Shown piece after piece: positions 5,134 through 37,838 of a DNA stretch of 64,000 nucleotides (the stretch's first letter is position 1; every line of letters begins with the position of its first letter). The DNA is taken from NCBI GenBank assembly GCA_017429325.1, contig JAFRPC010000028.1:2376-66375 (forward strand), written 5' to 3'. The position numbers and the translations under genes are program-made. Source of the DNA: Oscillospiraceae bacterium. Its GTDB lineage: Bacteria > Bacillota > Clostridia > Oscillospirales > Oscillospiraceae. The notes beneath the pieces are model-generated. The model had not been told where the DNA came from. It saw nothing but the letters and a program-made list of their open reading frames with translations, and did no database searches.

Positions 5134-5880
<747 letters not shown>

Positions 5881-6079: not shown

Positions 6080-6140
6080 CTTTGATAGGAAAGAGCGCAC
6101 AAAAGGTACGCATTGCACAGCTCGATAAACCGGTGTCGGA

Positions 6141-6997: not shown

Positions 6998-7157
6998 ATT
7001 GTATCATTCCTCCCTGATTGAACGCTCATTGTATTTTATTCTGTTTTTGCTCAGCAGTCAATCAGTTTTCGACTGATTGCGGGGCAGTTTTTGAGACAGG
7101 CGGCGGATCGTGCATTGCCGTGATCGTCTGCAATACCCTTTTCCCTTTGGATAAGTC

Positions 7158-7186
7158 TTGCAAAGCGCTGAATTCAGCGATATAAT
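7158..7186 (+). promoter_or_regulatory. Sigma-70-like promoter (TTGCAA, 17 nt, TATAAT)
   Basis: The near-consensus hexamers were read directly. They lie upstream of the GNAT/amidohydrolase genes. Confidence 0.6.
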
Positions 7187-7301
7187 ACCAGCATGAGATC
7201 AAGGGTTTTTACCCTTTTGTGGAATCAAGCCGAGACGCCGAGCGTTTCGGGAAAGAAGGAGCGTGTTTTTATGACCATCGAGGAAATGAAGGAATTGCAC
7301 T

Positions 7302-7763: not shown

Positions 7764-7819
7764 TTGGAAAAACAGCTCAGAAAGGCATATGCACATCTTC
7801 GAAAAATGGAGAGATGAAA

Positions 7820-21595: not shown

Positions 21596-22444
21596 TCAGC
21601 AGTTCCCGGTATAGACGAAGCGCAGGGCTTCCCGTGCGACCTCCGCCAGGCGGTAGACGGTTTTCACGTCGGTGGCCTGTCGGTCCTGCATTTGATACCG
21701 CGGGAAGAATCGGGAAATGTGGAGGGGAATTTCTTCCCCGTCGGCGCTTTCCAACCGGCTGACCCACTGAGACAGCTCCCGCATTTCCGCTTCGCTGTCG
21801 TTTTCCCCCGGGACCACCAAGGTCGTCAGCTCCACGTGACAGCTTCTGGCCGCAGCCTGGATGAAGGCCAGAACCTGGCTTCGGCTGCCGCCGAGGACCT
21901 GGCTGTAGTATCGGTCGGTAAAGCCCTTCAGGTCGATGTTCATCGCGTCGATATACGGGGCCAGCGCGTCCAGGACAGACAGCTCCGCAGTTCCGTTTGT
22001 CACCAGGACCGTCTTCAGCCCCTTGGCTTTGGCGAGCCGGGCCGTGTCCCGCACAAACTCATATCCGATGAGCGGTTCATTGTAGGTGAAGGCGATGCCG
22101 AGATTCCCCCTTTGGCGCGTCGCCAGGGCGAGCTCCGCCAGCGCCTCGGGGCGGATCGTATCCGCCGTCTGCGCAGAGCGTCTGGCCTGCTCCGACCAGG
22201 AAATCTCGTTATTCTGGCAGAAGGGGCAGCGGAGATTGCAGCCAAAACTGCCGACAGACAGAATCATGCTGCCGGGGAAAAACCGCGCCAGAGGCTTTTT
22301 CTCGATGGGGTCCAGGGCGAGAGCGGTGATCCGTCCATAGTTCAGCGCCTCCACGCGGCCATTTTTTGCAATACGACCGCCGCAAAAGCCGATCTGCCCC
22401 TCCGCGAGCTTACAATGTCTGAAGCAAACGCCGCATTCTGCCAT
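21596..22444 (-). CDS. AmmeMemoRadiSam system radical SAM enzyme
   Basis: The CNLRCPFCQN (CxxxCxxC) cluster is present. The N-terminal CFRHCKL..GFCG motif is typical of this family. An AGGAGGGAG RBS precedes the ATG at 22444. Confidence 0.85.
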   Translation of the reverse strand: MAECGVCFRHCKLAEGQIGFCGGRIAKNGRVEALNYGRITALALDPIEKKPLARFFPGSMILSVGSFGCNLRCPFCQNNEISWSEQARRSAQTADTIRPEALAELALATRQRGNLGIAFTYNEPLIGYEFVRDTARLAKAKGLKTVLVTNGTAELSVLDALAPYIDAMNIDLKGFTDRYYSQVLGGSRSQVLAFIQAAARSCHVELTTLVVPGENDSEAEMRELSQWVSRLESADGEEIPLHISRFFPRYQMQDRQATDVKTVYRLAEVAREALRFVYTGNC

Positions 22445-22475
22445 AGCGCTCCCTCCTGTTCTATCCGGTTTCCTG

Positions 22476-23861
22476 TCAGAAATGCCGCACGACCTCAAAG
22501 CGTTCCAGGCGGTACGGGTCGTTCTCCTGAATGCCGCCTTTCTGACGGGCGATCCGAACCTGTTCCTCCACGGTATCCACGCCCTCCAGATTCGGAAGCA
22601 GCAGACCTCGTTTCATGCCGTGGCTGACCACGACGCCGTACCGTTTCACGTCCAGCTCGCGCAGGGAGGCGACGGGCTCCAGCTCTCCCAGCACGTCTAC
22701 GCTGATCTCCAGGCTGCTCAGCTCCGCCTCTGTTACCGACGAGAAGCGGGGGTCCTGGGAGCAGGCGCCGACCGCGTTTTGCAGGATCTCCTCGGCAACG
22801 CTCCTTCGGGTCGCCGCGATGGTGCCGATGCAGCCGCGCAGCCTCCCGTTCCGGTGGAGGGAGACAAAGGTCCCCGCACGCCGCGTCAGCATTTCGTCCG
22901 GAAGGCCCGCCGGAACGGAAAGGCGTTCGTGCCGCCGGACCCAGGCTTCTACGGAGGCCCTCGCCAGCCTGACATAGGCGTCGCTCTTCTCCGCTTTTTC
23001 CCGGCACTCCCGTTCCGTCGTTTCCTGATAGGCTTTCAGAAAATGCCGCTCCGCGTCCGTGCCCTTCGGGTAGAAGGTGCAGATCCCGTATCCCACCCCC
23101 GTCACATCCTGGTGCGACAACACCGCAGCCTTCACGCCAAGGCCGTCCAAAGCGCCGGCCATCATCACAAAGGACCGATGCCCGCATTCCGCCGCCTTTT
23201 CGCAGAAGTTCTCGTCAAACGCAAAGAGTTCGCCGAAGGCTGCCCGCCCGCAGACATCCATGAGCCTGCGGTCATATTCCGGCCCCTCCGGGGCGAATCC
23301 GTAGGGTCCGTATGCCTGGAGCTTGTGAGAAAGGTCTCCGCTGGCGACCAGGACCGCCCGCCTTCCGGTGTCCTCCACGGCGCGGGCAAGGATCTGGCCC
23401 AGGCGGTAGTGTTCGGACAAGGGCAGACCGGACAGACCGATGCGCACAAGTTTTCCCCCAGCATAGCGGTTCCGAATGAACCAAAGGGGGACCATGGTTC
23501 CGTGGTCGAGGGCTGCGTCCCGTTCCCCCAGGGTCCCCGCGGGAAGGTTTTCCGCCTCCGCCAGAGCACAGATTTGCTCTACAAGCTCTGTGTCATAGCG
23601 CTCCGAAAACCGAACGCCGGACGCGCCGAATCGGCGGAAGGAGCCTTCTGCCCCGCTGCCGGGCGAAATGTGAAAGTAGTCCGCATACAGGACGGAATGC
23701 GGGCTGGTGATGAGCAGAGTGTCCGGCTTCAGGGCGGCGATTTCGTCGGCGACCTGTTCATAGGCACGAATCGTTTCACGGATCTGCTCTTCGCTTCCCC
23801 GCCCGACTTCCGGGATGATCATGGGCGGGTGCGGTACCATAAACGCGGCAAGGACAGACAT
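22476..23861 (-). CDS. Fusion of a LigB/Memo-like (class III extradiol dioxygenase fold) domain with an AMMECR1 domain (AmmeMemoRadiSam proteins B/A)
   Basis: The N-terminus is MVPHPPMIIPE...SPH...SGDLSH. The C-terminal AMMECR1 signature is LRGCIGTI...DPRF...ISVDVL. Confidence 0.8.
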   Translation of the reverse strand: MSVLAAFMVPHPPMIIPEVGRGSEEQIRETIRAYEQVADEIAALKPDTLLITSPHSVLYADYFHISPGSGAEGSFRRFGASGVRFSERYDTELVEQICALAEAENLPAGTLGERDAALDHGTMVPLWFIRNRYAGGKLVRIGLSGLPLSEHYRLGQILARAVEDTGRRAVLVASGDLSHKLQAYGPYGFAPEGPEYDRRLMDVCGRAAFGELFAFDENFCEKAAECGHRSFVMMAGALDGLGVKAAVLSHQDVTGVGYGICTFYPKGTDAERHFLKAYQETTERECREKAEKSDAYVRLARASVEAWVRRHERLSVPAGLPDEMLTRRAGTFVSLHRNGRLRGCIGTIAATRRSVAEEILQNAVGACSQDPRFSSVTEAELSSLEISVDVLGELEPVASLRELDVKRYGVVVSHGMKRGLLLPNLEGVDTVEEQVRIARQKGGIQENDPYRLERFEVVRHF

Positions 23862-23977: not shown

Positions 23978-24631
23978 CTACCGGACGACCGAGGAATTCC
24001 GATAGATGTAGAACTCCTCCTGGCTGGGCATCCATTTCTTCTCCCTGGGCGGGAAGCCCGCGTCGAAGGCCTCCACCGCGGCTGCATCCTCGCAGCAGTC
24101 GGCGGCGGTGCTGGGGAGGAACATCCACCTCCTGCCGTCCAGGGCGCCGGGGACCAGCTCGCAGACCAGCAGAGCCGTGGGATAGTTACCCCAGGCAAAG
24201 CAGCAGACATTCTTCTTTTTGCAGCTCACAAAGCCGCGGCTGACGTAGTTGCCCGGATTGCCGAAATTGATGTTGACGTCATAGCCCATTTTGCGGGCGG
24301 CCTCGAAGGAGTGCTCGATCAGGAGCTTGCCGAGCTTTTGCCGCTGGAACTCCGGCGCCACGCAGAGGGGGCCGAAGGAGAGGATCTCCTTTCGGGCTCC
24401 GTTCTCGTCCTCCAGCCAGGCCCTGGTGTACATGATATTGCCGATGAGCCTGCCGTCCAGCTCCAGGACAAAGGCGAGCTCCGGCAGGAAATCGGGGTGC
24501 TTCCGCATCTGATGGACGTAATAATGCTCGTCCGCGCCGGGCTTGTAGACGTTCCAAAAGGCCTCCCGGGTCAGCTCCTCCACGGCGCGATAGTCGTTTT
24601 CCGTCTCCAGACGGATCTTCAGATTCTTCAT
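23978..24631 (-). CDS. GNAT family N-acetyltransferase (last gene of the 8-gene operon)
   Basis: The motif region is CVAPEFQRQKLGKLLIEHSFEAARKMG. The start at 24631 follows a GGAGG RBS. Confidence 0.8.
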   Translation of the reverse strand: MKNLKIRLETENDYRAVEELTREAFWNVYKPGADEHYYVHQMRKHPDFLPELAFVLELDGRLIGNIMYTRAWLEDENGARKEILSFGPLCVAPEFQRQKLGKLLIEHSFEAARKMGYDVNINFGNPGNYVSRGFVSCKKKNVCCFAWGNYPTALLVCELVPGALDGRRWMFLPSTAADCCEDAAAVEAFDAGFPPREKKWMPSQEEFYIYRNSSVVR

Positions 24632-24703
24632 GGTGATGCCTCCGCAGCGTTTTCTTTGTGCGCTGGGAATGGGCGAAACGTCGCCCATTCTCTTTTCTCA
24701 ATA

Positions 24704-26071
24704 TTACAGCTTCTTGTAGAGCTCGTCGAAGCAGCGCAGGCCCTCGGCGCTGAGGCTGAGGGTGAAGTCGAACTTCTTGATGCCGAACTCGTCGCCGCCC
24801 AGGGGGTAGAGCCGCCAGAGGAAGCCCTCGCCGTGGCCGCGCATCCATTTGACGTACAGCTCCCCGTCCCGGAGGAAGACCTCCTCCGGGTAGAAGTTGT
24901 CGTCCTCCTCATGGGCGAATCTGCCGCAGAAGCTCGCCCAGGCGGACTTATCGGGGGTTTGGACCATGCGCTCCTCCAGGGTGCGGACGGGATCGGGCTC
25001 CCGGCCTCTCATGATCTCCCGCATCCCCTGGAAGAAGGCCTCAAAGGCGGGCGTATCCTCGGGGTCGCGGCAGAGCAGGAGGATCAGGACCCGGTCCGCG
25101 TCGAGGAAGCGCTCGTACCGGGTGTGGGCGCCCTTGTGCCAGCCGCCGTGCTCCACAATGCGCCCCTGGTCCGGTTCCTTCGGGATGGCCCAGCCGAAGC
25201 CGTAGCCCTCCCCCTCCTCGTCCACGTACTCCTCGCCATTATTGAGCGTCACGGGGGTGTACATGAGCTGCTGCGTTTCCGCGGTGAGCAGGCTCCCTTC
25301 CCGCAGGACCCGGTCCCACCGGAACAGGTCGAGGATGTTGGAATACACGTTGCCCTCGCCGCTGGTCCCGTCCTCCGGGATCACGTCGCGGTCGTTTTTC
25401 GAGAAGTCCGGGAGGAGATAGCGCCCGTCCTCCAGCACCATGGCCCGGGCGAAGTTGTCGGAGGGCCAGCCGTCCCGGCGGACGTGGCAGACCGCGGTGG
25501 AATGCAGGCCGGCGGGCTCGAAGACCCGCTGCTTCATGAAATCCTCGAAGGGCAGGCCGGAGACCTGCTCCACGATGAGCGCCAGAAGGCAGTAGTCGCT
25601 GTTGGAATAGCAGGAGTCCTCGCCGGGAGCAAAGTAGGCCTCCGCCCCGCTCTCACAGAGGAAGCGGAGAACGTCATTGTTGTCCGGGATCCGGTTCTCT
25701 TTTTCCCAGATCCCGATCAGCCAGTTGATGTCGTCAAAGTAATCGACCACGCCGCCGGTGTGGGTCAACAGATGGCGGACCGTCACGCCGGGGTACGGGA
25801 GCCCGGGGAAGAACTTCGTAATCTCGTCCTCCAGGTCCAGCAGACCTTCCTGGACCAGCAGCATGATGGCCGCGGCGGTGAACTGCTTGCTGACGGAGGC
25901 CAGATCGAAGACGCTGTCCTCCCGCAGGGGGAGCTTGTCTTCCGTGTCGCGCCAGCCGAGGGCGCCCTTGGAAACGATCTCGCCGTGTTCGGCGTAGAGC
26001 CAGGTCCCGTTGAAAAGCCCCTTCTCGTGGGCCTCGCGGACCATTTTTTCAATCGTTGTTTTCTTATCCAT
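24704..26071 (-). CDS. Beta-lactamase-fold serine hydrolase (S12 / class C-like) with a C-terminal beta-rich domain
   Basis: The SxxK motif SVSKQF and the YxN motif YSNSDY are present. It is a paralogue of 30689..32065. Confidence 0.85.
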   Translation of the reverse strand: MDKKTTIEKMVREAHEKGLFNGTWLYAEHGEIVSKGALGWRDTEDKLPLREDSVFDLASVSKQFTAAAIMLLVQEGLLDLEDEITKFFPGLPYPGVTVRHLLTHTGGVVDYFDDINWLIGIWEKENRIPDNNDVLRFLCESGAEAYFAPGEDSCYSNSDYCLLALIVEQVSGLPFEDFMKQRVFEPAGLHSTAVCHVRRDGWPSDNFARAMVLEDGRYLLPDFSKNDRDVIPEDGTSGEGNVYSNILDLFRWDRVLREGSLLTAETQQLMYTPVTLNNGEEYVDEEGEGYGFGWAIPKEPDQGRIVEHGGWHKGAHTRYERFLDADRVLILLLCRDPEDTPAFEAFFQGMREIMRGREPDPVRTLEERMVQTPDKSAWASFCGRFAHEEDDNFYPEEVFLRDGELYVKWMRGHGEGFLWRLYPLGGDEFGIKKFDFTLSLSAEGLRCFDELYKKL

Positions 26072-26155
26072 ACATACCTCCTGATTATTCTGTACGATCC
26101 CGTTTTCGACGAAACGGGTTTTGGAGCGGGAGGCCTCGCTGTCGCCGCGGGGCGT

Positions 26156-27463
26156 TTACTTACCGGACACCGTCACGCCGTCGAAGGCGATGAAGGGCAG
26201 GCTGCAGGTGCCGTCCCGCAGGACCTCGCTGCTGATGGCACGGACGGTTTTCAGCATGTCCGCGATGCAGCCGCTGATCATGGTCTCGGTCAGCGCGGTC
26301 ACAAGCTTGCCGTTTTCAATGAGGAAGCTGTTCTTGGCCACGCCGGAGAATTCTCCGCTGGGCGACGGCTCGCCGCCGGAGAAGCGCATGACCAGCACGC
26401 CCCGCTCGATCCCGGAAATGATCTCGTCCAGAGACTTGCCCCCGGCGGGAACGTGGGGATAGGGGCACCAGCCGGTGCAGCCGCCCCGGACGCCGCCGGT
26501 CTTGTTGGCGCCGTACTGTGTCAGGGCGAAGCCTGTCAGTCTGCCGTCCCGGATAATATCGTAGTCCTCGGCGCGGTAGCCCTCGTCGGTGAAGCGCTCC
26601 CCTGCCACCACGTCGGCAGCCCGGGGGGCGAAGCGCAGGCTCAGTTGCTCATCGGCGACCTGCTGGCCCAGCTTGTCCTTCCAGATGCTGGTCCCGTCGA
26701 TGAGGGCGTTCTCCCCCACGAAGTTCCAGTTGACCGTGCTGAGCACTAACTCGAACAGGGCCCCGGGAGCCAGGAGCACGGTGCCGGTGAACTTCCCCTC
26801 CAGAGGCTTGCTGTCCACCTGGCGCTCCACGGAGCTGAGTTCCCATTCGATCAGGGCGCAGTCGATGAAGGGCTTGTCCAGATCGGCAAGCTTCGTTTCG
26901 CCGTAGTAGAAGCTGCTCGCCTTCTCCCCCTCGTGGGCGGAATAGGTCAGGGTGAAGTTGTAGCCGCCCTCCGCGGTGCGGCAGCTGACGCCGGCGCTGT
27001 TTTTCAGGACGGTGCGGGTCGCCTTGTGCTCCGTGTACAGTTCCTCGATGATGATCCTGGGATGGCGGGCGGCGATGTCCTCCGCCAGCTCCCGGGTCCG
27101 GGCGAAGAGGCCCTCGGCGTCGCAGACCAGGGGACCTTCCGTGAAGCTCTCGTCTCTGGGCTCGCTGTCGAACTCCCAGGCGTCGTCCGGCTCCGCGCTC
27201 TCGGCGGAGGCGATGCAGTCGGCCACGGCCTTGCGAAGGGCCTCGTCCTCAAAGCTGTTGACGGAGATTGTGCCCTTGCGCCGGTCCTTCAGCACGGAGA
27301 GCTCCACGCTGCGGTCAAACAGCGTCCGCATCAGGGAGAACTCGTTGCCGAGCATATTGAACTCGTGGGTCTCGGTCTCTTTCACAACACATTGGGCGAA
27401 CTGGGCACCGGATTCCTTCGCCGCGTCCAGCACGCGCTGTGCAAGCTGTTCCAGTTTTTCCAT
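26156..27463 (-). CDS. pmbA: PmbA/TldE-like metallopeptidase subunit
   Basis: It has the family layout and lacks HExxxH. The ATG at 27463 has a GGAGGAAG RBS and lies 1 nt after the tldD stop. The track's TTG start at 27478 is less likely. Confidence 0.8.
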   Translation of the reverse strand: MEKLEQLAQRVLDAAKESGAQFAQCVVKETETHEFNMLGNEFSLMRTLFDRSVELSVLKDRRKGTISVNSFEDEALRKAVADCIASAESAEPDDAWEFDSEPRDESFTEGPLVCDAEGLFARTRELAEDIAARHPRIIIEELYTEHKATRTVLKNSAGVSCRTAEGGYNFTLTYSAHEGEKASSFYYGETKLADLDKPFIDCALIEWELSSVERQVDSKPLEGKFTGTVLLAPGALFELVLSTVNWNFVGENALIDGTSIWKDKLGQQVADEQLSLRFAPRAADVVAGERFTDEGYRAEDYDIIRDGRLTGFALTQYGANKTGGVRGGCTGWCPYPHVPAGGKSLDEIISGIERGVLVMRFSGGEPSPSGEFSGVAKNSFLIENGKLVTALTETMISGCIADMLKTVRAISSEVLRDGTCSLPFIAFDGVTVSGK

Positions 27464-27464
27464 C

Positions 27465-28847
27465 TTATCTTCCTCCAATCATGACCTTGCAGCGAAGGGC
27501 GGGACCGCCAAGTCCCACCGGCATCGGCTGCTTTTTGCCGCAGAAGCCGGAGCTCTCCCACTCGACCTGGTCGCTGACCATATCGACGGTCTTGAGCATT
27601 TCAAAGGCGACGCCGGAGATGGTAGTGTCCAGCAGTGCGCGGCCCAGCTTTCCGTTTTTGATCTCATAACCCATGGTAATGCCGAACATGAACTCGCCGG
27701 TGGTGTCCGCCTGTCCGTTGTTGGTGGAGATCAGGTAATAGCCCTCGTCCACGGAGGCGATCATGTCTTCTAACTTGTCCTTGCCGGGGTGGATGGCGGT
27801 GTTGCGCATCCGGATCAGCGGCTCGTCGGAGAAGAGCCAGGCCCGGGCGTTGCCGCAGGGCTCCATGCCAAAGCGCTGGGCGCTCTCGCGGCTGTGCATA
27901 TAGCCGGTCAGAATACCGTTTTCAATGATCTTCGCGTCCCGGGCCAGGGTGCCCTCGTCGTCCACGAAAACGGGCAGGGGGCAGCGCTTCCCGAAGGCGG
28001 TGTGGGCGAAGTCGGTCAGCGACACCAGCTCGCTGGCGACAGGCTTGCCCAGACAGCGGCCCGCCACGCTTCCGCCCAGGACCAGGTCGGCTTCCACGGT
28101 GTGGCCCACGGCCTCGTGGGACAGTATACCGGTCAGCTCCCCGCCCAGGATCACGGTCCGCAGACCCGCGTCGGCGTACACGCCTTCGCGCTTCTGCATG
28201 AGCCGTTCATAGAGCCGGTCGATATCCTGGAAATAAGCCGCCGGGTCGGTGAAATTGAGGTCGAAGGTCCGCTCGCCGCCGAAGGCATGGTACAGCTCCA
28301 CCGGCGTCCCCGCGTCGGTCTCGGCGGTCATATACACGTAGACGTAGGAGCGGGGCAGGACGGTGTGGGCGTCCGTGCCGTCGGAGACGACCAAAAGCTT
28401 CTCCATGGAGTCCTCCGTCGCGTAGATGCGGCGGCTGACCAGCTTGGGGCAGTGCTCCGCGATGTAGTTGTCCAGGGCTCGCGCAAAGTCCGTGTAGACG
28501 CGCTGGGCCGGGTCGTGGATGGCCTCGCAGACGACGCGGCCGGCGGGCAGGGACGGCAGAGCCGGTTTCCTGCCGGGGGCGTGGGCGTTCATAAAGGCAG
28601 CGTTTTCCGCCGCAGCCCGGAGCACCCGCTCCGCGGCCTCGGCGCTGCACTCCGCCATGGAGGAGAAGCCGTAGCGTCCGCCGCGGTAGACCCGGGCGCT
28701 GACGCCCGCGATGTCCGAGCGATTGTTTTCTACAATATCCCCCGCCAGCAGCATGACGTTCCGCTTGCGGTTCCGCTGCATCCGCAGCTCGGTATGCGCG
28801 CCGGGTTCAAACAGGGCTTTCTTTGCAGAGATAAGGTCTTGTAACAT
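27465..28847 (-). CDS. tldD: TldD-like metallopeptidase
   Basis: The HEAVGH (HExxxH) motif is present. The C-terminal GxC...GGP region is typical of TldD. Confidence 0.85.
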   Translation of the reverse strand: MLQDLISAKKALFEPGAHTELRMQRNRKRNVMLLAGDIVENNRSDIAGVSARVYRGGRYGFSSMAECSAEAAERVLRAAAENAAFMNAHAPGRKPALPSLPAGRVVCEAIHDPAQRVYTDFARALDNYIAEHCPKLVSRRIYATEDSMEKLLVVSDGTDAHTVLPRSYVYVYMTAETDAGTPVELYHAFGGERTFDLNFTDPAAYFQDIDRLYERLMQKREGVYADAGLRTVILGGELTGILSHEAVGHTVEADLVLGGSVAGRCLGKPVASELVSLTDFAHTAFGKRCPLPVFVDDEGTLARDAKIIENGILTGYMHSRESAQRFGMEPCGNARAWLFSDEPLIRMRNTAIHPGKDKLEDMIASVDEGYYLISTNNGQADTTGEFMFGITMGYEIKNGKLGRALLDTTISGVAFEMLKTVDMVSDQVEWESSGFCGKKQPMPVGLGGPALRCKVMIGGR

Positions 28848-28887
28848 GGTGATCCTCCTTACGTACAGTACATACAGTTGTATGGTG

Positions 28888-29379
28888 TCAATTTCTGTGG
28901 AGCTCGAAATAGAGGTTCGTCTCCGGGTCCTCGCCCTGGGCGATCACGTGGGCGGGCATTTCCTTTTGGGTGAAGCCGAGCCTGCGATACAGGGCGATGG
29001 CCCTGGCGTTCTCCGGGGCGGGATCCACCCAGACGGTCTCGGCGCCGTTTCGGAAGGCCTCGCGGATGGCGTGGGTCAGGCCTTTGGTCGCGATGTCCCG
29101 GCCCCGGGCTGCGGCGAAGAGCTTGACGTCCAGGGAGGCGCTGCGGGTCTGTTCGTCGATGCTGTAGTTGGTCTCGCCGCAGTAGACGCCGTCCTCGTAG
29201 ATGGACCAGTGATTTGCCCTCGGCCGCACAGCGGACAGCTCTTCGATCCAGGCCCGCAGCGCCTCTTCCGGCTCGTGCAGTCCCTCGGGGAAACCGACGA
29301 AGCGCATCACGTCGCCGTCGGCCCAGAGGCGTTGGATGTTTTTCAGATCCGCAAGGGTCGTTTCTTTGATTTCCAGCAT
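28888..29379 (-). CDS. GNAT family N-acetyltransferase (RimJ/RimL-like)
   Basis: Motifs ARGRDIATKGLTHAIREAF and PENARAIALYRRLGF are present. The start at 29379 follows GGAGG. Confidence 0.8.
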   Translation of the reverse strand: MLEIKETTLADLKNIQRLWADGDVMRFVGFPEGLHEPEEALRAWIEELSAVRPRANHWSIYEDGVYCGETNYSIDEQTRSASLDVKLFAAARGRDIATKGLTHAIREAFRNGAETVWVDPAPENARAIALYRRLGFTQKEMPAHVIAQGEDPETNLYFELHRN

Positions 29380-29398
29380 TTGTGGACCTCCGATCCGG

Positions 29399-30676
29399 TT
29401 ACTCCATCCCGTAGCAGACGTATTCATGGCTGAATTCGTAGCCGAGCTTCTCCGCCAGCCGGACCGAAAGCATGTTGGCCGCGTCCCAGCTGGGATACAG
29501 GCCCTCGTCCAGGCAGGAGAGGATCAGCTTTGCGGCCACGGCGGAGCCCAGGCCCTTGTGGCGCTCTTCCTTGGCGACGTCGATCTCGATCTCGATGCCG
29601 TCCCGGTACCGGGAGTAGGAAGACGCGGCGCCGACGAGCTTGCCTGCCTTCAGTACGGCCCAGCCCCGGCCCAGCTCGAGGAACTGTTCCTTGGTCTCAA
29701 AGATGGAAACACAGTCCTCGTAGTTCTCGTCCTTCCGGCAAAGCTCGTAGAGCTCGCTGTCGATCTTTCGCAGCTCATAGCCCTCGGGAAGGGCGTTGAC
29801 CATGGCCTGCAGCTTCTGCCGGTCAAATTTCGTATCCTTTTTGATGGCATAGCGGATCCGTTTGTAGACGGGGAAGTTCTCCTCCATCAGGGTCGCCCAG
29901 GCCTCGTTCTGCGGCACCACGATCATCCAGCGCTCCGGCTTGCCCCGCAGGAGCTCCGGATCCGGCTCTCCCGCCACGAAGGCGAAATCGCCGATGACGG
30001 CCATGGCGGATCTGGGCTGCTCCGGGTTGGTGACAAGGAGTTTGCCCATCACCCCGTCCAGACAGGAGCGGATGCCGGTGTCGGGATCCACCCATTGGGC
30101 AAAGATGGGTGCGGCTTTTGCCGGATCGTCCAGCTCGAAGACTTTACGATCCTCGTTTTCTGCCTGTTCGGCGTCGGCGGCTTCGTCCCGGAGCTTCAGC
30201 ACGGCGACGATCTCGTCCTCGTCCATCTCCCCGTTCTCCTCGAAACCGAAGGAGGCGTAGAGCTTTTTTGCCACCTCGTTTTCGGGATTGTAGGAGGTGA
30301 CACAGGCCTCCGCCTCTCCGCGGGGCCGGGTCTTGATGAATTCCAGGGCCAGACGCACGGCCTCCCGACCAAAGCCCTGCTTTTGATACCGCTTGTCGAT
30401 CATCAGCCGCCAGAGGCTGTAGTTGTCTTTCAGCGCCTTGGGGGCGTCGGGTCCTTCGAGGGCGGCCTCGTTGTAGCCGATCATCAGGAAACCCACCAGG
30501 GTCTCGTCGTCATAGATGGCGAAGGGCCAGGCGTAAGCCTCCCCCGACATGACGGCCAGATAGGCCTCCGCCAGACTCTCCGTGTTGTTGGCCACGAAGG
30601 GATACTGGGACTCAAAGATATTCAGTTCGATCAGTTCTTCAAAGTTTTCGCCGGTAACTTTTTCCAGACGTACCAT
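29399..30676 (-). CDS. Two-domain GNAT acetyltransferase
   Basis: The N-terminal GNAT has MIDKRYQKQGFGREAVRLALEFI and the C-terminal GNAT has VAKEERHKGLGSAVAAKLILSC. Confidence 0.8.
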   Translation of the reverse strand: MVRLEKVTGENFEELIELNIFESQYPFVANNTESLAEAYLAVMSGEAYAWPFAIYDDETLVGFLMIGYNEAALEGPDAPKALKDNYSLWRLMIDKRYQKQGFGREAVRLALEFIKTRPRGEAEACVTSYNPENEVAKKLYASFGFEENGEMDEDEIVAVLKLRDEAADAEQAENEDRKVFELDDPAKAAPIFAQWVDPDTGIRSCLDGVMGKLLVTNPEQPRSAMAVIGDFAFVAGEPDPELLRGKPERWMIVVPQNEAWATLMEENFPVYKRIRYAIKKDTKFDRQKLQAMVNALPEGYELRKIDSELYELCRKDENYEDCVSIFETKEQFLELGRGWAVLKAGKLVGAASSYSRYRDGIEIEIDVAKEERHKGLGSAVAAKLILSCLDEGLYPSWDAANMLSVRLAEKLGYEFSHEYVCYGME

Positions 30677-30688
30677 TTTTATCTTCCT

Positions 30689-32065
30689 TTACAGCTTTTT
30701 GCAGGGCTGTCCGCCGTTGACGGTCACGCAGCCGTCGCCGAAGGCGATTTTGACCATGCCGAGCTTCCGGCCAAATTCGTTCTCACCGAGGGGATAGAGC
30801 CGGAACTTCAGCTCGTCGCCGTCGTCGTCGAGGGCTTTCGCATAGAGCTCGCCGTCCTGCATCCAAACCTCGTCAATGAGGAAATCGGCGTCCTCGGGAT
30901 GCTCGTATTTGCCGCAGAAGCTTTCCCATTGGGACTTGTCGGGATTCTGGATGGCGAGCTCCTCAATGCTGCGAACGGGCGCGGGTTCCTTGTCCGCGGC
31001 CACGGCCTGCAGGCCGTCCCAATAGCCCTCGAAGGCCCTGTAATCCATGGGATTGCGGCTGTCCAGGATGATCAGGACCCGGTCCGCGTCGATCCAGCGC
31101 TGGAACCAGGTGGCAACGCCGGGCATCCCGCCGCTGTGACAGACTGTAAGGCCAAGCTTTTCGCTGCGGCCAGCGGCCCAGCCGAAGCCGTAGGCCAGGC
31201 CCTCCTCCTCGTCGTAGAAGGCGGGCTCGCCGCTGTTGAGGGTCGCGGGGGTGTACATGAGCTTCTGCTCCTCGAGGGTCAGCACCTTGCCCGCCCGCAG
31301 GGCCCGGTCCCACTTTAGCATGTCGAAGATGGTGGAGTAGACGTAGTCGTCGCCGTTCAGACCGTCGAAGGCCACCACGTCGCCGTCCTCCTCGGAGTCG
31401 ATATCGGCGACGTATTTGCCGTCCTCGAGGACCGACGCCCGGGCGTACTTTTCAAAGGGGACGCCGTCCCGGCGGATGTGGCAGCAGCGGGTGTTGGACA
31501 TCCCGGCGGGCTCGAAGATGTTCTTTTGCAGGAAGTCCTCGAAGGGGACGCCGGTGCGCCGCTCCACCAGCAGGGCCAGCAGATTGTAGCCGGTGTTGGA
31601 GTATTCAAACTTCTCCCCTGGGACGCCGTAGGGCTTTGCCTCGGTCTCACGGAGGAAGCGCAGGATCTCGTCGTTGCCGGGGACCCGTTTCTCTTCCTTC
31701 CAGCGCTGGATGAACCAGTCGGCGTCGTCAAAGTAGTCGGGTACGCCGCCGGTGTGGGACAGCAGATGACGGACGGTCACGCCGGGATAGGGGATCTCGG
31801 GAAAGTATTTCGTGATCTCGTCGTCCAGGCCCAGAAGGCCCTGCCGGACCGTCAGCATGACCGCAGCGGCGGTGAACTGCTTGGTCACGGAGGCCAGCTG
31901 GAAGATCGTGTCCTCCGTGAGAGGCTGGGTGTTTTCCGGGTCCAGGAAGCCCAGGGCGCCCTTGGAGACGATCTCGCCGCCCTCTGCATAGAGCCAGGCG
32001 CCATTGAGACTGCCGCGTTCATAGGCTGCACGGGCCAGGTTTTCTATTAACATTTTCTTATCCAT
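30689..32065 (-). CDS. Beta-lactamase-fold serine hydrolase (S12 / class C-like), paralogue of 24704..26071
   Basis: SVTKQF (SxxK) and YSNTGY (YxN) are present. It is alignable end to end with the paralogue, for example GVTVRHLL(S/T)HTGGV and LYPLG..EFG.K. Confidence 0.85.
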   Translation of the reverse strand: MDKKMLIENLARAAYERGSLNGAWLYAEGGEIVSKGALGFLDPENTQPLTEDTIFQLASVTKQFTAAAVMLTVRQGLLGLDDEITKYFPEIPYPGVTVRHLLSHTGGVPDYFDDADWFIQRWKEEKRVPGNDEILRFLRETEAKPYGVPGEKFEYSNTGYNLLALLVERRTGVPFEDFLQKNIFEPAGMSNTRCCHIRRDGVPFEKYARASVLEDGKYVADIDSEEDGDVVAFDGLNGDDYVYSTIFDMLKWDRALRAGKVLTLEEQKLMYTPATLNSGEPAFYDEEEGLAYGFGWAAGRSEKLGLTVCHSGGMPGVATWFQRWIDADRVLIILDSRNPMDYRAFEGYWDGLQAVAADKEPAPVRSIEELAIQNPDKSQWESFCGKYEHPEDADFLIDEVWMQDGELYAKALDDDGDELKFRLYPLGENEFGRKLGMVKIAFGDGCVTVNGGQPCKKL

Positions 32066-32077
32066 TTTTCTATCTCC

Positions 32078-34054
32078 TTAATCGTCTTTCAATTCCTTTT
32101 CGAGGATCTTGTCTACAAAACCGAAGAGCTTGTCTTCGACCTTGTATGCGAGGGGATTGGAGCCGTTGAACATCGCGGCGGCGCAGAGCTCCTCCTTCAA
32201 AGACAGGATCCAGTAGGCGAGAAAGCATTCGTTTCCGCCGGTGTGGCCCACAATTTCGGGATTCTTGTCGTCCATGCCGATGCACAGACCGTAGCCGTTC
32301 CGCATCGGCGTCACCATGCGCCGGGCTGTCTCCTGCTTCAGCAGGCCGCCCTCGCGGTAACTCTTGGACAGGGCGGCGCCCAGCTTGACCAGCTCCGTGG
32401 GCGTGGTCCAGAGGCCCGCGGCGGCGTGCTCCGGATAGTAGTGCCAGCCGTGGGCGGGGTCCTCCTTCTGTGCGAGTCTGCCGCCGAAGGCCGCGTTCTC
32501 CACAAGGGCTTCGTCCAGGGGCTGGAAGAAGCCGGTCCGGGTCAGGCCGAGAGGCTCTGCGATCTCGGTTTGGAAGGCCTCGCGCAGGGTCGTGCCGGTG
32601 ATACGCTCAAAAGCCAGTTGGGCCAGGATGATGCCGCCGCCGGAGTACATGTGCTGTTTGCCATAGGGCTTGATCCGGCGGATGCGCGGCGTGTTGCCCT
32701 TGCCGCTCAGCACATCCTCCAGGCTGAGAGGCGCGTGGTCCGCCCGGTAGCCAGGGAAGCCGTGGACGTTGAAGCCCGCCGTGTGGCTGAGCAGGGCGGC
32801 GAAGGTCACGGGGCCCTTGACAAACTCCGGCACGACGCCGGAGATGTCCGCGTCCAGGTCGATGAGGCCCTTGTCCACATAGCGCAGCAGGGTCATGGCG
32901 AACATGGGCTTGCTGATGGAGGCCGCCTGGAAGAGGGTTTCCGGGTCCACCGGGCAGTCCTCCCCGAAGCGCCTGCTGCCGGAACAGTAGGTGTCCGCAC
33001 CTTCTCCGTCGCCGATGGCGATGCTGACGCCGTAGCCCCGCCTGCCCCGGAGCCGCAGCATGTTGTCCAGGTCTTCGCCGTAGAAGGTTTTGACGGTCTT
33101 GTTCGGGCCCTTGAGCATCCGCATCAGCACGGCTTCGTCGCCGCAGATGGCTCCGGTCTTCCGGAAGCCGGCTTTCTGATAGACGTGCAGGCCGCACTCG
33201 TTCTCCGGCTCGGTGGACAGATAGAGCCGGTCCGCACCGTTGTCTTTGAAATATTGGATGATCTCCCGCAAGGCGGCCTGGCCGAAGCCCTTGCCCTGCT
33301 CGTTCTGGTCGATCATGAAGCGCCAGAGCCAGTAGCGCTCCGACAGGTCCTTCTCCTCCGGGTCAAAGGAGAACATGCAGAAGCCCACGAGCCGGTCGCC
33401 GCTGTAGATGGCGAAGGGCCGCGCATAGCCCGGATGCTCCGCGTTGGCCTCGTCGGCCTGCCGCAGAGAGACGTCATTGGGGGCGACAAAGGGCTGGTCC
33501 TCCCGGACGGAGAGACGGAGCACCGCCTCGCGGTTGCTCTCGTCGATGGGCCGGAGCTCCACCAGGGGCGTGACCTTCTCCTCGTCTCCGCTGAGATCGA
33601 CGCGGAGGGCCTGGGCCGTGGTGAAGCCCAGCCTGTCATAGATGCGCTTGGCCTTTTTGTTCCATTCCACTACGCTGAGGGTGATGGGCTCGTCATTCTG
33701 TTCCCGGATCCGCTCCATGCCCCAGAGCATGAGCTTCGTGCCGAAGCCCTGATTCCGATACTCCTTTGCGACCACTAAGTTGTCCAGCTCGTTGCCGTAG
33801 ACGCCGACTGAGCCGATGAGCTTCCCGTCCCGGACAAGCAGGTATACGCAGGGGACCTCTTCCTCCTGGAGCGCCTCTAAGCCTTCCATGCAGTCCCAGG
33901 GCTCGACTCGGATGGCCTTCCGCAGGGGGCGATAGCCCTCGTTCATGATGCGCCGGTATTCGGAAAAATACGTTCCGTCGTAGGGGATGCACGCGATGCC
34001 GCTCTTCTCAAAGCCGCTCCCCCTGTATTCCATTTCAAAAACAGTGAATGACAT
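32078..34054 (-). CDS. Tri-domain fusion: GNAT, GNAT and beta-lactamase-fold serine hydrolase (first gene of the operon)
   Basis: GNAT 1 has VAKEYRNQGFGTKLMLWGMERI and GNAT 2 has MIDQNEQGKGFGQAALREIIQYF. The hydrolase domain has ASISKPMF (SxxK), YSGGG and HTGG. Confidence 0.85.
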   Translation of the reverse strand: MSFTVFEMEYRGSGFEKSGIACIPYDGTYFSEYRRIMNEGYRPLRKAIRVEPWDCMEGLEALQEEEVPCVYLLVRDGKLIGSVGVYGNELDNLVVAKEYRNQGFGTKLMLWGMERIREQNDEPITLSVVEWNKKAKRIYDRLGFTTAQALRVDLSGDEEKVTPLVELRPIDESNREAVLRLSVREDQPFVAPNDVSLRQADEANAEHPGYARPFAIYSGDRLVGFCMFSFDPEEKDLSERYWLWRFMIDQNEQGKGFGQAALREIIQYFKDNGADRLYLSTEPENECGLHVYQKAGFRKTGAICGDEAVLMRMLKGPNKTVKTFYGEDLDNMLRLRGRRGYGVSIAIGDGEGADTYCSGSRRFGEDCPVDPETLFQAASISKPMFAMTLLRYVDKGLIDLDADISGVVPEFVKGPVTFAALLSHTAGFNVHGFPGYRADHAPLSLEDVLSGKGNTPRIRRIKPYGKQHMYSGGGIILAQLAFERITGTTLREAFQTEIAEPLGLTRTGFFQPLDEALVENAAFGGRLAQKEDPAHGWHYYPEHAAAGLWTTPTELVKLGAALSKSYREGGLLKQETARRMVTPMRNGYGLCIGMDDKNPEIVGHTGGNECFLAYWILSLKEELCAAAMFNGSNPLAYKVEDKLFGFVDKILEKELKDD

Positions 34055-34096
34055 TGTTAGATTCCTCCAAATTATAATGATAATAAAGCAAATAAC

Positions 34097-34127
34097 AAAA
34101 AGAGCCGTGACAGTCAGTCACGGCTCC
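34097..34127 (-). terminator. Leader terminator 2 (strong hairpin plus U-tract) upstream of the 32078..34054 start
   Basis: On the minus strand the 10-bp stem is gagccgtgac-tgact-gtcacggctc, followed by TTTTTG. Confidence 0.7.
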
Positions 34128-34156
34128 GGAAACAGACAGTTTGCCTCCCAAAAAGA

Positions 34157-34186
34157 CAAAAGAAAACCGTGACAATGATGCCACGG
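34157..34186 (-). terminator. Leader terminator 1 (hairpin plus U-tract)
   Basis: On the minus strand the 8-bp stem is ccgtggca-tcat-tgtcacgg (one G-U pair), followed by TTTTCTTTTG. Confidence 0.65.
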
Positions 34187-34239
34187 CGCAAAAAGCAGAC
34201 AGATATTCTGTCAATTGAAATCAGCGAACCCCGAGGGCA

Positions 34240-34278
34240 TCATGCAATATTCAGTTTCTCCGTCTTTTCGTTACGCAT
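34240..34278 (-). CDS. Candidate 12-codon leader peptide (MRNEKTEKLNIA)
   Basis: An ATG follows a GAGGA RBS 8 nt upstream. The ORF lies between the promoter and the two leader terminators, and its stop codon sits inside an 8-nt segment complementary to terminator 1. Confidence 0.35.
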   Translation of the reverse strand: MRNEKTEKLNIA

Positions 34279-34314
34279 GGGAATATCCTCGCAATTCCAA
34301 GTTTTTCTGAATAG

Positions 34315-34343
34315 ACTATATCAGATAAACTGCGAATTGTCAA
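34315..34343 (-). promoter_or_regulatory. Consensus sigma-70 promoter (TTGACA, 17 nt, TATAGT) driving the leader and the 8-gene operon
   Basis: On the plus strand tgtcaa lies at 34338-34343 and actata at 34315-34320, with an exact 17-nt spacer. The patch is AT-rich. Confidence 0.7.
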
Positions 34344-34475: not shown

Positions 34476-34940
34476 ATGACGGTAGAAACTGCGCGGCTGC
34501 GGCTGGTCCCCATCTCCAACAGGGAGCTGGAAGCGCTGATCGCCCGGGAAGAGGACCCGGAGCTGAAGCAGGCCTATTCAGAAATGCTCCAGGGCTGCCT
34601 GCGGGAGCCGGAAGCCCGCCTCTGGCACACGGTCTGGTATCTGGAGCGGAAGACCGCGCCGGGGACTGTCGTGGGGGACCTCAGCTTCAAGGGCCTGAAC
34701 CCCGACGGCTCGGCAGAGCTGGGCTACGGGCTCCGGGCGGGCTGCTGCGGCTGCGGCTACATGACCGAAGCCGTCCGGGCCGTCTGTACCTGGGCCTTTG
34801 CCCAGGGCGCGGTCCGGGTGGAGGCCGAGACCGCCCCGGAGAACACGGCCTCTCAGCGGGTCCTGGCCCGGGCGGGCTTCCTGCCCACCGGCGCCGTCGG
34901 CGAGGAGGGGCCCCGCTTCGCTCTCTTTCCGCCCCGCTGA
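34476..34940 (+). CDS. GNAT family N-acetyltransferase (RimJ/RimL-like), divergent from the operon
   Basis: RLRLVPIS..., GYGLRAGCCGCGYMTEAVRAV and PENTASQRVLARAGF are present. The start at 34476 follows GGAGGCGGAG. Confidence 0.8.
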   Translation: MTVETARLRLVPISNRELEALIAREEDPELKQAYSEMLQGCLREPEARLWHTVWYLERKTAPGTVVGDLSFKGLNPDGSAELGYGLRAGCCGCGYMTEAVRAVCTWAFAQGAVRVEAETAPENTASQRVLARAGFLPTGAVGEEGPRFALFPPR

Positions 34941-35062
34941 CCCGGCGCAGGCCGAGCCCCTGCGGCTCCCAGCTGGATTCATTTGGCATCGCCGTCATCT
35001 CGCCAAGATGACGTATTCTCCGGGCACAAGGCCCCGGAATTCTACAGAAAGGAATTTCAAAG

Positions 35063-36496
35063 ATGAAAGCACCCTTTTCTCCCTATCTGGACGCCCTCGC
35101 ACCCGGAATGAAGGCGCTGGCGGACATCCTGGGCAGGTCCTTTGACTATGTGAGCATCCTGTCCACCGATTCTGTCGGCTTCACCGTCTCCATCTCCCAG
35201 CGGAGCAAGCGCGTCACCGGAACCAACATGACCACCGAGCGCGGCAACGTCGTCCGCGTCTGGCGGAACGGTCAGTACAGCGAATACGCCTTCAACGAAG
35301 TGTCGGGAAGCATCGAGGAACTGGCCGAGACCATCCGCAAGGAGCTGGACCGCCAGTTCGCGGTCCTGGCGCTGACCGGCACGAAGGCCTTCGACACCCC
35401 CATCCTTGCGGACGAACCCCTGGAGCTCTTTGTGGAAAAAGAGACTGAACGCCTGCCCGAGCAGGAGGATATGGCGGCTCTGGTGGAGCGCTTCACCGGC
35501 CTGTCCGCCCGCGGGATGGAGACCATTCCCCGGGCTCTGGACTGCCTTCTGAACGCCTCCTCCACCCACATCTGCAAGATGTTCCTCACCAAAAACCGCT
35601 TCCTGCGCCAGAGCTACGTCTACACGGAAGGCAGCTGCGCGGCATACGCGCCGAACGACGCCGGGGAGATCAAGTTCGCATACAACGGGGTCTCCGGCTG
35701 CTGCGGTCCCGAGGTGCTGGAGGGCCTGAAGAAGGTCGTCGAGGAGCTGCCGAAGACCATGGAGGAGATGCTCGCCTCCGAGAAGATCGTCCCCGGTGAG
35801 TACGAGATCATCACCGACCCCGGCATCAGCGGCCTGATCGCCCACGAGGCCTTCGGCCACGGCGTCGAGATGGATATGTTTGTGAAGAAGCGCGCCTTGG
35901 GCGCCGAATACATCGGCAAGCGCGTGGGCTCCGACCTGTGCACCATGCACGAGGGCGCCCTCTGCGAGGAGAGCGTCACCGCCTACGCCTTCGACGACGA
36001 GGGCACCCTGGCCGGCGACGTGACCGAGATTGACCACGGCATCCTGAAGACCGGCATCTGCGACGCCCTGGCCGCCCTGCGGCTGGGCACGGTGCCCACC
36101 GGCAACGGCAAGCGGGAGAACTTCGCCCACAAGGCATACACCCGCATGACCAACACCATTTTCGACTCCGGCGACAGTACCTTTGAGGAAATGGTCGCCT
36201 CTGTCAAGCACGGGTATCTGCTGCGGGGCACCGAGAGCGGCATGGAGGACCCCAAGCACTGGGGCATCCAGTGCATCATCGCCCGGGGCTACGAGATCAA
36301 GGACGGCGCCTTCACCGGCAAGGTGGTCTCCCCCGTGGTCATGACCGGCTACGTGCCGGATCTGCTGGGCGGCATCTGCATGGCCTCCCGGGACCGCAAG
36401 GTGGACGGCAACGGCGGCTGCGGCAAGGGCCACAAGGAATGGGTCAAGGTGGCCGACGGCGGCCCCTATCTGAAAACGAAAGCGAGGCTGGGATAA
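35063..36496 (+). CDS. tldD: TldD-like metallopeptidase (second copy)
   Basis: The HEAFGH (HExxxH) motif is present, and the C-terminal GGCGKG region is typical. Confidence 0.85.
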   Translation: MKAPFSPYLDALAPGMKALADILGRSFDYVSILSTDSVGFTVSISQRSKRVTGTNMTTERGNVVRVWRNGQYSEYAFNEVSGSIEELAETIRKELDRQFAVLALTGTKAFDTPILADEPLELFVEKETERLPEQEDMAALVERFTGLSARGMETIPRALDCLLNASSTHICKMFLTKNRFLRQSYVYTEGSCAAYAPNDAGEIKFAYNGVSGCCGPEVLEGLKKVVEELPKTMEEMLASEKIVPGEYEIITDPGISGLIAHEAFGHGVEMDMFVKKRALGAEYIGKRVGSDLCTMHEGALCEESVTAYAFDDEGTLAGDVTEIDHGILKTGICDALAALRLGTVPTGNGKRENFAHKAYTRMTNTIFDSGDSTFEEMVASVKHGYLLRGTESGMEDPKHWGIQCIIARGYEIKDGAFTGKVVSPVVMTGYVPDLLGGICMASRDRKVDGNGGCGKGHKEWVKVADGGPYLKTKARLG

Positions 36497-37782: not shown

Positions 37783-37838
37783 CCTGTACAGGGGGGAGAA
37801 AAAAGTTCTTGACATTTCCCCCCTGTACAGGCTATAAT
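37783..37838 (+). promoter_or_regulatory. rpmH promoter (TTGACA, 18 nt, TATAAT) embedded in a 15-bp perfect inverted repeat
   Basis: The -35 lies at 37809-37814 and the -10 at 37833-37838. The inverted-repeat arms cctgtacagggggga (37783-37797) and tcccccctgtacagg (37817-37831) flank the -35. Confidence 0.6.

Follow-up and report, generated by a model that had tools for sequence, protein, structure and literature searches.

A GNAT, S12 hydrolase and TldD/PmbA gene battery behind a putative leader-peptide attenuator in a rumen Oscillospiraceae genome

A stretch of 64,000 nucleotides from the metagenome-assembled genome (MAG) of an uncultured rumen Oscillospiraceae bacterium of the Clostridia (GCA_017429325.1, contig JAFRPC010000028.1, positions 2,376 to 66,375; here called the window) contains a locus composed of GNAT acetyltransferases, S12 serine hydrolases, and TldD/PmbA metalloproteases. 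An operon of eight genes (g1 to g8) is preceded by a promoter and leader at 34055-34343 and flanked by a divergent trio (d1 to d3) at 34476-37770 (Table 1). A first-pass annotation had let the locus end at 34054; this boundary has to be moved, as the leader and the divergent trio belong with the operon. Eleven consecutive genes from three superfamilies cannot plausibly have come together by chance, according to a rough estimate assuming that these superfamilies make up ~2% of genes. The leading, still tentative, explanation is a translation-stress-induced cytoplasmic battery that would hydrolyze and then N-acetylate its substrate, probably peptide antibiotics; the substrate, the read-through of the leader, and the order of the reactions are what we infer. 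The parts are of known kinds. The literature and databases searched describe neither their combination nor the GNAT-S12 fusion family nor the leader, in line with the earlier statement that no system of this composition had been described.

ORF positions and Pfam domains bear out the first description of the operon as eight tightly packed minus-strand genes at the coordinates given in Table 1, made only of GNAT, S12, and TldD/PmbA proteins. The intergenic gaps from g1 to g8 are 12, 12, -29 (19 with the gene-caller start of g4), 40, -14 (or 1), 84, and 15 (or 72) nt, and the minus strand shows no terminator-like site within the run of eight genes. Judged by the tight spacing, the one strong promoter, and the lack of an internal terminator-like site, the eight genes are predicted to be a single unit. 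The layout is also present in the independent ENA metagenome contigs L001 to L004, which cover it wholly or in part. None of the operon proteins contains a hydrophobic segment fitting a signal peptide or transmembrane helix, and all products are therefore taken to be cytoplasmic. Acetyltransf_3 domains of the RimJ/RimL type are found by Pfam in g1, g3, g4, and d1, and the acetyl-coenzyme A (acetyl-CoA) loop is found in the GNAT domains g1a, g1b, g3a, and g3b, with the g1 loops reading RNQGFG and QGKGFG. With NCBIfam, every operon protein stays far under the equivalog cut-offs and none is assigned a name. The free hydrolases g2 and g7, proposed earlier to be paralogues, share 55% identity over 434 amino acids (E 3e-174), and the second GNAT of g1 is homologous to the first GNAT of g3, also as proposed (36% over 163 amino acids, E 5e-26). 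The suggested growth by internal duplication and fusion therefore holds.

Three samples were used for comparison: a TldD-anchored set of 80 species loci from GTDB genomes, fetched via an alignment of TldD homologues (63-82% identity; MAG labels Oscillospiraceae, Lachnospiraceae, Christensenella, and others, plus Flexilinea); a fusion-anchored set of 80 metagenome loci around the GNAT-S12 fusion; and 3 additional loci from S12-anchored look-ups.

The leader of ~260 nt between promoter and g1 carries a Shine-Dalgarno sequence (SD), an upstream ORF (uORF), a conserved AACUGAAUA block, and two tandem terminator hairpins. The earlier finding of no transporter and no protein regulator stands, while this cis-acting RNA leader had been overlooked. 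Its promoter blocks are kept in homologous leaders of other organisms. Leaders of the window type head the g1 homologues in L092 and L091 and TldD in L005, with the uORF at the homologous site being MRNNTTEELNID in L092 and MWNKTVKVQLNIME in L005. The tandem terminators occur in the window, L092, and L005, and L091 has only one. These four leaders form a divergent variant that has the promoter, SD, uORF, and AACUGAAUA block in common with a canonical form (for example, L094:9742-9928) and differs from it in the 3' half. The sequences preceding g1 homologues can be aligned over the whole span from promoter to terminator, and a covariance model of the canonical form, R1, matches 51 of 81 sources with 92-218 bits, these matches all falling within the 80 metagenome loci and L094, as well as 3 of 3 S12-anchored loci. 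R1 always matches on the strand of the genes and ahead of the first one, which is sometimes a small GNAT instead of the fusion. In 1.47 Mb made up of the TldD-anchored loci and the window, the model gives a single marginal match (L092, 15.6 bits, E 0.6). Rfam yields nothing at gathering score on the window or five loci, and no relevant match even at an E value of ≤10 for the window leader or the canonical leader.

Of 40 distinct canonical leaders, at least 37 retain the SD and a uORF of 6-12 codons with the consensus M-I-N-N-A-I-V-G. The stop codon of the uORF is no more than 2 nt away from the AACUGAAUA block, and the start-to-block distances step by 3 nt, as counted by eye in a subset of leaders. 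An untranslated, pure RNA element is rejected, since the leaders conserve the start codon, its distance from the SD, and the place of the stop despite the length variation. Ile (25.5%) and Asn (16.5%) are prominent among the uORF residues; ANN codons make up 56% of the uORFs versus 24% of the downstream genes, and ANN or GNN codons together reach 87%. H1, a hairpin that follows the uORF, has undergone compensatory changes in 3 of its 5 pairs, and the canonical 3' region of ~60 nt including the terminator is almost invariant. A known riboswitch or T-box is rejected on the missing Rfam match, the GUGGGAACCGCAG block resembling a T-box sequence only superficially. Pairing of the SD with an anti-SD in GUAACUUUC, seen by eye, is discarded as well, being broken in GGUG-type leaders. 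Among window-type leaders, the region of the uORF start may pair with the 5' arm of terminator 1, in the window and L092 only.

With promoter, SD, a short conserved ORF, and a terminator preceding the first gene, the leader is probably a ribosome-dependent (uORF) attenuator, and by analogy it probably senses stalled ribosomes. In uORF attenuators, stalling by antibiotics or amino acid starvation turns expression on (PMC12121999, PMC10274678, PMC4191407). The arrangement of a short uORF upstream of a terminator or occluded ribosome-binding site resembles the whiB7 leader, toiL-topAI-yjhQ, bmrB-bmrCD, and the erm/cat leaders. Enrichment for a single amino acid, Ile in the uORF here, is also seen in the whiB7 uORF, whose composition decides which amino acid starvation is sensed (PMC10274678). 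In contrast to these known attenuators, the leader has a near-invariant 3' region of ~60 nt, precedes GNAT, S12, and peptidase genes, and is unrelated in sequence and structure to any Rfam family. Paenilamicin stalling depends on the A-site tRNA, with UNN codons refractory and CNN codons weakly affected (PMC11581978); a uORF rich in ANN and GNN codons fits a drug-sensor role, being compatible with it and no proof of it. The Ile-rich uORF also raised the idea of a GNAT toxin-antitoxin system of the AtaT/TacT/ItaT kind acetylating aminoacyl-tRNA. This candidate is rejected because the spaces between the genes show no small ORF that might encode an antitoxin, and because fusion or linkage joins the GNATs to hydrolases.

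The free S12 enzymes carry the catalytic motifs SVTK/YSN/HSG (g2) and SVSK/YSN/HGG (g7), and the S12 domain of g1 carries SISK/YSG/HTG, in which the second motif departs from YxN. The nearest solved relatives of g2 by phmmer are 2dns, 2qmi, 4y7p, 9s7k, and 1ei5, and its sequence relatives include D-amino-acid amidase, Pab87, alkaline D-peptidase, DD-carboxypeptidase, and D-aminopeptidase. Foldseek with the AlphaFold model of g2 returns 9sn1, 2qmi, 6ksu, 8fek, and 1ei5; the full-length structural matches are the Lip3 DL-peptidase, Pab87, SurE, Ulm16, and DAP, followed by D-stereospecific hydrolases. In the PDB, the closest matches by sequence and by structure are thus the D-stereospecific S12 enzymes, a group comprising Ochrobactrum DAP/DaaA, Bacillus alkaline D-peptidase, Pab87, the Lip3/Lip7 DL-peptidases, and gramicidin-hydrolyzing D-stereospecific peptidases. 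Shared with them are the PF00144 fold, the SxxK/YxN/HxG motifs, and a C-terminal beta domain as in DAP, Pab87, and SurE; they differ in that the identity is just 18-26% and that the D-aminopeptidase model scores 76.6 bits versus a cut-off of 443. The free S12 enzymes resemble D-stereospecific peptidases and amidases, and a D-preference is predicted. Two papers describe such enzymes as able to break down nonribosomal peptide antibiotics containing D-residues (PMC9541196, PMC12903863).

Recycling of cell-wall peptides would also draw on such enzymes: S12 hydrolases and peptidases would degrade muropeptide stems, whether imported or from turnover (D-Ala, D-Glu, diamino acids), and the GNATs would re-acetylate or cap the amines. 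DD-peptidases and D-aminopeptidases are among the S12 relatives, and the proteins are cytoplasmic. Against this, NagZ, AmiE, MurQ, LdcA, and a muropeptide transporter were not found among the recurrent neighbors, and a ribosome-stalling leader is no obvious sensor of cell-wall turnover; this is the most improbable of the explanations considered.

The GNAT-S12 fusion of ~496 amino acids gives 1923 matches, the best 120 of which show 70-89% identity; the tri-domain form of g1 is rare. A free S12 enzyme of the g2/g7 type is present in 35 of the 80 fusion-anchored loci; 61 loci have room for a gene directly downstream, and in 25 of these it occupies that place. L176 has an unfused GNAT and S12 pair behind a canonical leader, and the S12-anchored look-ups returned the arrangements fusion-S12-M3, GNAT-S12, and fusion-S12. 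On these comparisons, the GNAT-S12 coupling appears real and conserved, both physically and genetically. In L177:1-7252, the fusion with its leader adjoins a prophage-like block ending in a large serine recombinase.

The protein g3 had been annotated as GNAT-GNAT. The first GNAT is retained, and the second is replaced by a tandem-GNAT module: residues 190-422 match PF12746 with 255 bits versus a cut-off of 26, and the module finds PDB entries 3G3S at 3.9e-60 and 7B3A (PamZ) at 2.6e-13. A single acetyl-CoA P-loop (R/Q-x-x-G-x-A/G), RHKGLG, lies in the C-terminal half of the module, a pattern as in PamZ (PMC9054821). Its sequence places the C-terminal module of g3 in the PamZ/ZmaR antibiotic-acetyltransferase family. 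PamZ inactivates paenilamicin and ZmaR zwittermicin by N-acetylation, alongside a D-Asn-specific peptidase (PMC9054821). Paenilamicin PamZ and PamJ, zwittermicin ZmaR, edeine, and amicoumacin, as cases of dual self-resistance, resemble the present locus in pairing a drug-amine GNAT with a D-residue peptidase (PMC9054821); the g3 module belongs to the same PF12746 family, and 3G3S was the molecular-replacement template for PamZ. The target of paenilamicin is the ribosome (PMC11581978), and here too the leader should sense stalled ribosomes. The locus differs in having no counterpart to the biosynthetic cluster, and genes for nonribosomal peptide synthetases or polyketide synthases are absent from the window and related loci. 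The known D-Asn peptidases are membrane proteins or linked to ABC transporters and activate the prodrug on export, whereas the S12 enzymes here are predicted to be soluble and cytoplasmic. Many more GNATs, and TldD/PmbA in addition, are found at the present locus. Membership in the PamZ/ZmaR family holds for g3; a self-resistance role does not.

A second comparison is the immunity to microcin C, in which the GNAT MccE and the serine peptidase MccF follow the same logic, a peptidase and a RimL-type GNAT detoxifying a peptide-borne antimetabolite. MccF is a member of family S66, not S12. The two cases differ in that mcc genes are absent here and the hydrolases are of the S12 type. No specific similarity to MccE was found, NCBIfam giving weak matches to many GNAT families.

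The TldD-type protein g5 contains the HEAVGH motif named in the first-pass annotation at residues 244-249, g6 lacks HExxxH, and the two share 26% identity (E 1e-15). Their scores remain below the equivalog cut-offs, with 240 bits versus 635 for NF040952 and 149.8 versus 513 for PRK10735 in the case of g5 and 70.3 versus 438 in the case of g6; g5/g6 form a subfamily distinct from the Escherichia coli and archaeal equivalogs. The divergent genes d1 to d3 form a GNAT-TldD2-PmbA2 operon facing away from g1, and subunits of the d2/d3 type are joined to GNAT/S12 clusters in L127, L138, L148 (d3 only, cut by the contig end), and L150. TldD/TldE acts on unfolded peptides, the microcin B17 precursor and CcdA among them. 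As in E. coli TldD/TldE, the paralogues are adjacent, HExxxH is confined to the TldD-type subunit, and a C-terminal GxC is present. The differences are the two divergent pairs in one locus, the unreached equivalog cut-offs, and the linkage to GNAT/S12 genes and a uORF leader, which is undescribed for the E. coli genes. Among the relatives, four MAGs labeled Flexilinea/Chloroflexi (L008, L009, L010, and L016) have TldD-PmbA proteins 74% identical to those of Clostridia, which suggests horizontal transfer in the rumen or binning errors. A LytTR regulator and a DUF3021 membrane protein lie upstream of TldD-PmbA in one lineage (L087/L088:6813-7744), and in a second lineage such a pair precedes the leader with its GNAT-S12 fusion (L094:8759-9648; four loci).

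A check of the linkage beyond this lineage gives a divided result: the GNAT-S12 coupling recurs, and the link of TldD/PmbA to GNAT/S12 genes is absent in most relatives, an outcome that the first-pass annotation had listed among those refuting its proposal. In the TldD-anchored set, TldD and PmbA are adjacent in 77 of 80 species; within about 7 kb, any GNAT is found in 4 of 80 loci and any S12 in 3 of 80, and no neighbor besides PmbA is conserved among the 80 species loci. The arrangement recurs in part, as TldD-PmbA-S12 (L005) and TldD-PmbA-GNAT-S12 (L006), in just the two nearest species, and more distant TldD relatives have unrelated neighbors. A sister species with a TldD 90% identical shows the order S12, GNAT plus PF12746, Peptidase_M3, TldD, PmbA, S12, Peptidase_M29; the general peptidases M3 and M29 thus occupy the slots of g4 and g8. 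In the fusion-anchored set, a GNAT of the g3a type is present in 10 of 80 loci, a PF12746 GNAT in 5, an M3 peptidase in 6, M29 in 1, TldD/PmbA of the d2/d3 type in 3-4, and that of the g5/g6 type in 1 (L095, from the lineage of the window). A protein family of ~293 amino acids recurs in 11 fusion loci, and two Q-G-L-G motifs read by eye suggest a tandem GNAT. No recurrent transporter or regulator is found among the fusion-anchored neighbors. From the fusion- and S12-anchored counts, the conserved core is therefore GNAT(-S12) plus S12, and the TldD/PmbA, M3, and M29 peptidases are optional accessories of the battery; TldD/PmbA as a conserved core is rejected by the 80-species neighborhood analysis. 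In L095, a canonical leader is followed by fusion, g2, g3, g4, and TldD-PmbA, and in L005, the window-type leader lies directly upstream of TldD-PmbA-S12, so the proteases come under the same control in this lineage.

The variable gene order and content between close relatives, together with TldD-PmbA standing alone in nearly all relatives, could be taken for a pile-up, peculiar to this lineage, of GNAT and hydrolase genes duplicated from housekeeping ones beside the conserved TldD-PmbA pair, with no shared pathway and merely a common promoter. The same few families recur, however, around the GNAT-S12 fusion in many unrelated contexts, GNAT and S12 are conserved in one polypeptide at 70-89% identity, and whatever gene the cluster begins with, a conserved leader of its own precedes it. 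Such a pile-up is accordingly regarded as improbable, slightly less so than cell-wall recycling.

On the explanation of an induced battery, transcription from the strong promoter would stop by default at the two tandem leader terminators. The uORF would be translated, and a ribosome stalled by a translation inhibitor or a missing charged tRNA, above all for Ile and Asn, would cause the RNA to refold and RNA polymerase to read through, by analogy with toiL, whiB7, and bmrCD. The S12 hydrolases and the two TldD/PmbA metalloproteases would break the amide bonds of peptide-like molecules that are small or unfolded, thereby exposing free amino groups, and the GNATs, one of them fused to S12 and one of the PamZ/ZmaR type, would N-acetylate these amines with acetyl-CoA. 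The purpose would be the inactivation of imported peptide or peptide-polyketide antibiotics with D-residues and free amines. Cleavage followed by N-acetylation for detoxification or salvage had been proposed from the outset and is now supported by the g3 module, the D-stereospecific-type fold of g2, and the uORF/terminator leader, a type that regulates stress-inducible and resistance genes; the function as such remains what we infer.

The same gene set could serve scavenging under starvation, the uORF sensing uncharged tRNA, the peptidases freeing amino acids from imported peptides, including those whose D-residues make them resistant to ordinary peptidases, and the GNATs acetylating the released D-amino acids or other unusable amines. 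This possibility, which is doubtful, agrees with the richness of the uORF in Ile and Asn and with the whiB7 precedent for composition setting the sensed starvation (PMC10274678), with M3 and M29 filling GNAT slots in the sister species and recurring elsewhere, and with cytoplasmic proteins and no resistance-type transporters found. At least 7 acetyltransferase domains are hard to justify nutritionally, and the g3 module has no characterized relatives other than antibiotic acetyltransferases. T-boxes are the usual sensors of tRNA charging in Firmicutes, and Rfam detects none here. The rapid gene turnover among close relatives is more typical of defense than of core metabolism. Antibiotic inactivation is favored over scavenging because of the number of GNATs, the PamZ-family module, and this fast turnover.

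Several observations weigh against an induced antibiotic-inactivating battery. Folding of the canonical leader under ribosome masking, and with truncation ahead of the 3' arm of the terminator, produced no conserved and thermodynamically convincing antiterminator, and the terminator region is so nearly invariant that it offers no covariation. Most GNATs at the locus have only remote characterized relatives; those of g4, g8, and d1 in the PDB are remote and uninformative, PaiA and RimI being nearest to g4. The g2 model reaches a moderate pLDDT of 68, with 85-90 in the C-terminal beta domain. In most species, TldD-PmbA of the g5/g6 type is a stand-alone pair, and the general peptidases M3 and M29 fit nutrition as well as detoxification. 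Neither an efflux pump nor a biosynthetic cluster is present at the locus or among the recurrent neighbors. The full-length GNAT-S12 fusion is absent from the 72,556 plasmids searched; on this and on the lack of a GC anomaly at the operon locus, a mobile or plasmid-borne resistance gene is rejected.

In a broader form, which is as doubtful as starvation scavenging, the locus would be a widespread inducible resistance module of rumen and gut Clostridia, whose leader peptide, encoded largely by ANN codons (Ile, Asn), would sense peptide or peptide-polyketide antibiotics that target the ribosome and switch on a variable cytoplasmic battery of D-stereospecific S12 hydrolases, TldD/PmbA, M3, and M29 peptidases, and PamZ-like and other GNATs that cuts and then N-acetylates the drug. 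If true, a common enzymatic resistance or detoxification module with a built-in sensor would exist in livestock gut bacteria, the GNAT-S12 fusion would join the known resistance enzymes as a new bifunctional hydrolase-acetyltransferase, and the physiological role of TldD/PmbA in Firmicutes would gain a defined setting. With the leader, a leader-peptide attenuator usable as a biosensor and a new class of antibiotic-sensing attenuator would be added. Under the nutritional alternative, the locus would show how anaerobes handle peptides containing D-residues. The question is directly testable because leader reporter fusions can reveal the inducing signal and hence point to the substrate.

Table 1. 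Features of the GNAT/S12/TldD-PmbA locus and its surroundings in the window
Feature	Position	Strand	Description
g1	32078-34054	-	658 aa; GNAT-GNAT-S12 tri-domain protein; PF00144 1.4e-41 (Pfam)
g2	30689-32065	-	458 aa; S12 hydrolase with C-terminal beta domain; PF00144 1e-57 (Pfam)
g3	29399-30676	-	425 aa; GNAT plus PF12746 tandem-GNAT module, 9e-76 (Pfam)
g4	28888-29427	-	179 aa; small GNAT, Acetyltransf_3 type (Pfam); probable start 29379 (163 aa), from the gene-caller start in L001
g5	27465-28847	-	460 aa; TldD, three PmbA_TldD domains; HEAVGH, C-terminal GFC
g6	26156-27478	-	440 aa; PmbA/TldE-type partner subunit (Pfam); without HExxxH
g7	24704-26071	-	455 aa; second free S12 hydrolase; PF00144 3e-51 (Pfam)
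g8	23978-24688	-	236 aa; GNAT, Acetyltransf_1 (Pfam); probable start 24631 (217 aa)
Sigma-70-type promoter	34315-34343	-	TTGACA-17-TG-TATAGT; 11/12 consensus plus extended -10 TG
Transcribed leader	34055-34314	-	~260 nt: SD, uORF, AACUGAAUA block, two tandem terminator hairpins
SD of uORF	34292-34286	-	Sequence reading
uORF	34240-34278	-	12 codons, MRNEKTEKLNIA
Conserved AACUGAAUA block	34256-34248	-	Inside the window uORF
Terminator-like hairpin 1	34166-34187	-	9-bp stem, 5 GC pairs, T-run; then UUUCUUUUG; kept in L092, L091, L005
Terminator-like hairpin 2	34101-34127	-	11-bp stem, 7 GC pairs, T-run; then UUUUUG; kept in L092, L005
d1	34476-34940	+	GNAT, Acetyltransf_3 type, Pfam 1.1e-20; 154-aa gene call in L001
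d2	35063-36496	+	Second TldD-type subunit, HEAFGH; 31% identical to g5
d3	36496-37770	+	Second PmbA-type subunit, 424 aa; without HExxxH; gene call in L001
Consensus promoter	37809-37838	+	Perfect 12/12 sigma-70 consensus
AmmeMemoRadiSam set	21596-23861	-	Memo/LigB-AMMECR1 fusion and radical SAM enzyme
SIR2-STAND NTPase	18060-21518	+	1152 aa
Chloramphenicol acetyltransferase	10931-11581	-	Classical type; PF00302 E 1.9e-44
Low-GC stretch	4001-8000		GC 0.49-0.51
Fic/DOC-family protein	844-1581	+	

The locus adjoins rpmH-rnpA-yidD-yidC-jag. By synteny with L003, rpmH-rnpA-yidD are expected at ~37.8-41.3 kb, ahead of yidC and jag, and the locus is therefore probably near the replication origin; the consensus promoter listed in Table 1 lies in the gap just downstream of d3. 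On the other side, the AmmeMemoRadiSam set directly follows g8, with no terminator detected between them. Homologues of this set adjoin the GNAT-S12 fusion in a different order in L120:192-2418. A functional link is rejected, as the set is missing from the sister species and most loci.

Convergent with the operon, a SIR2-STAND NTPase matches the LmuA, ThsA, and Avs5-type models of PADLOC and is a probable anti-phage defense gene. The operon itself is not a known anti-phage system: PADLOC gives only a marginal match for g1 (E 1e-4, PDC-M11A) and none for the others tested, with d1 and d3 outside the scan. A chloramphenicol acetyltransferase gene lies ~12 kb from the operon, and a Fic/DOC-family protein is encoded near the start of the window. 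The GC content of the 4-8 kb stretch compares with about 0.62 elsewhere in the window, and this stretch may be foreign DNA.

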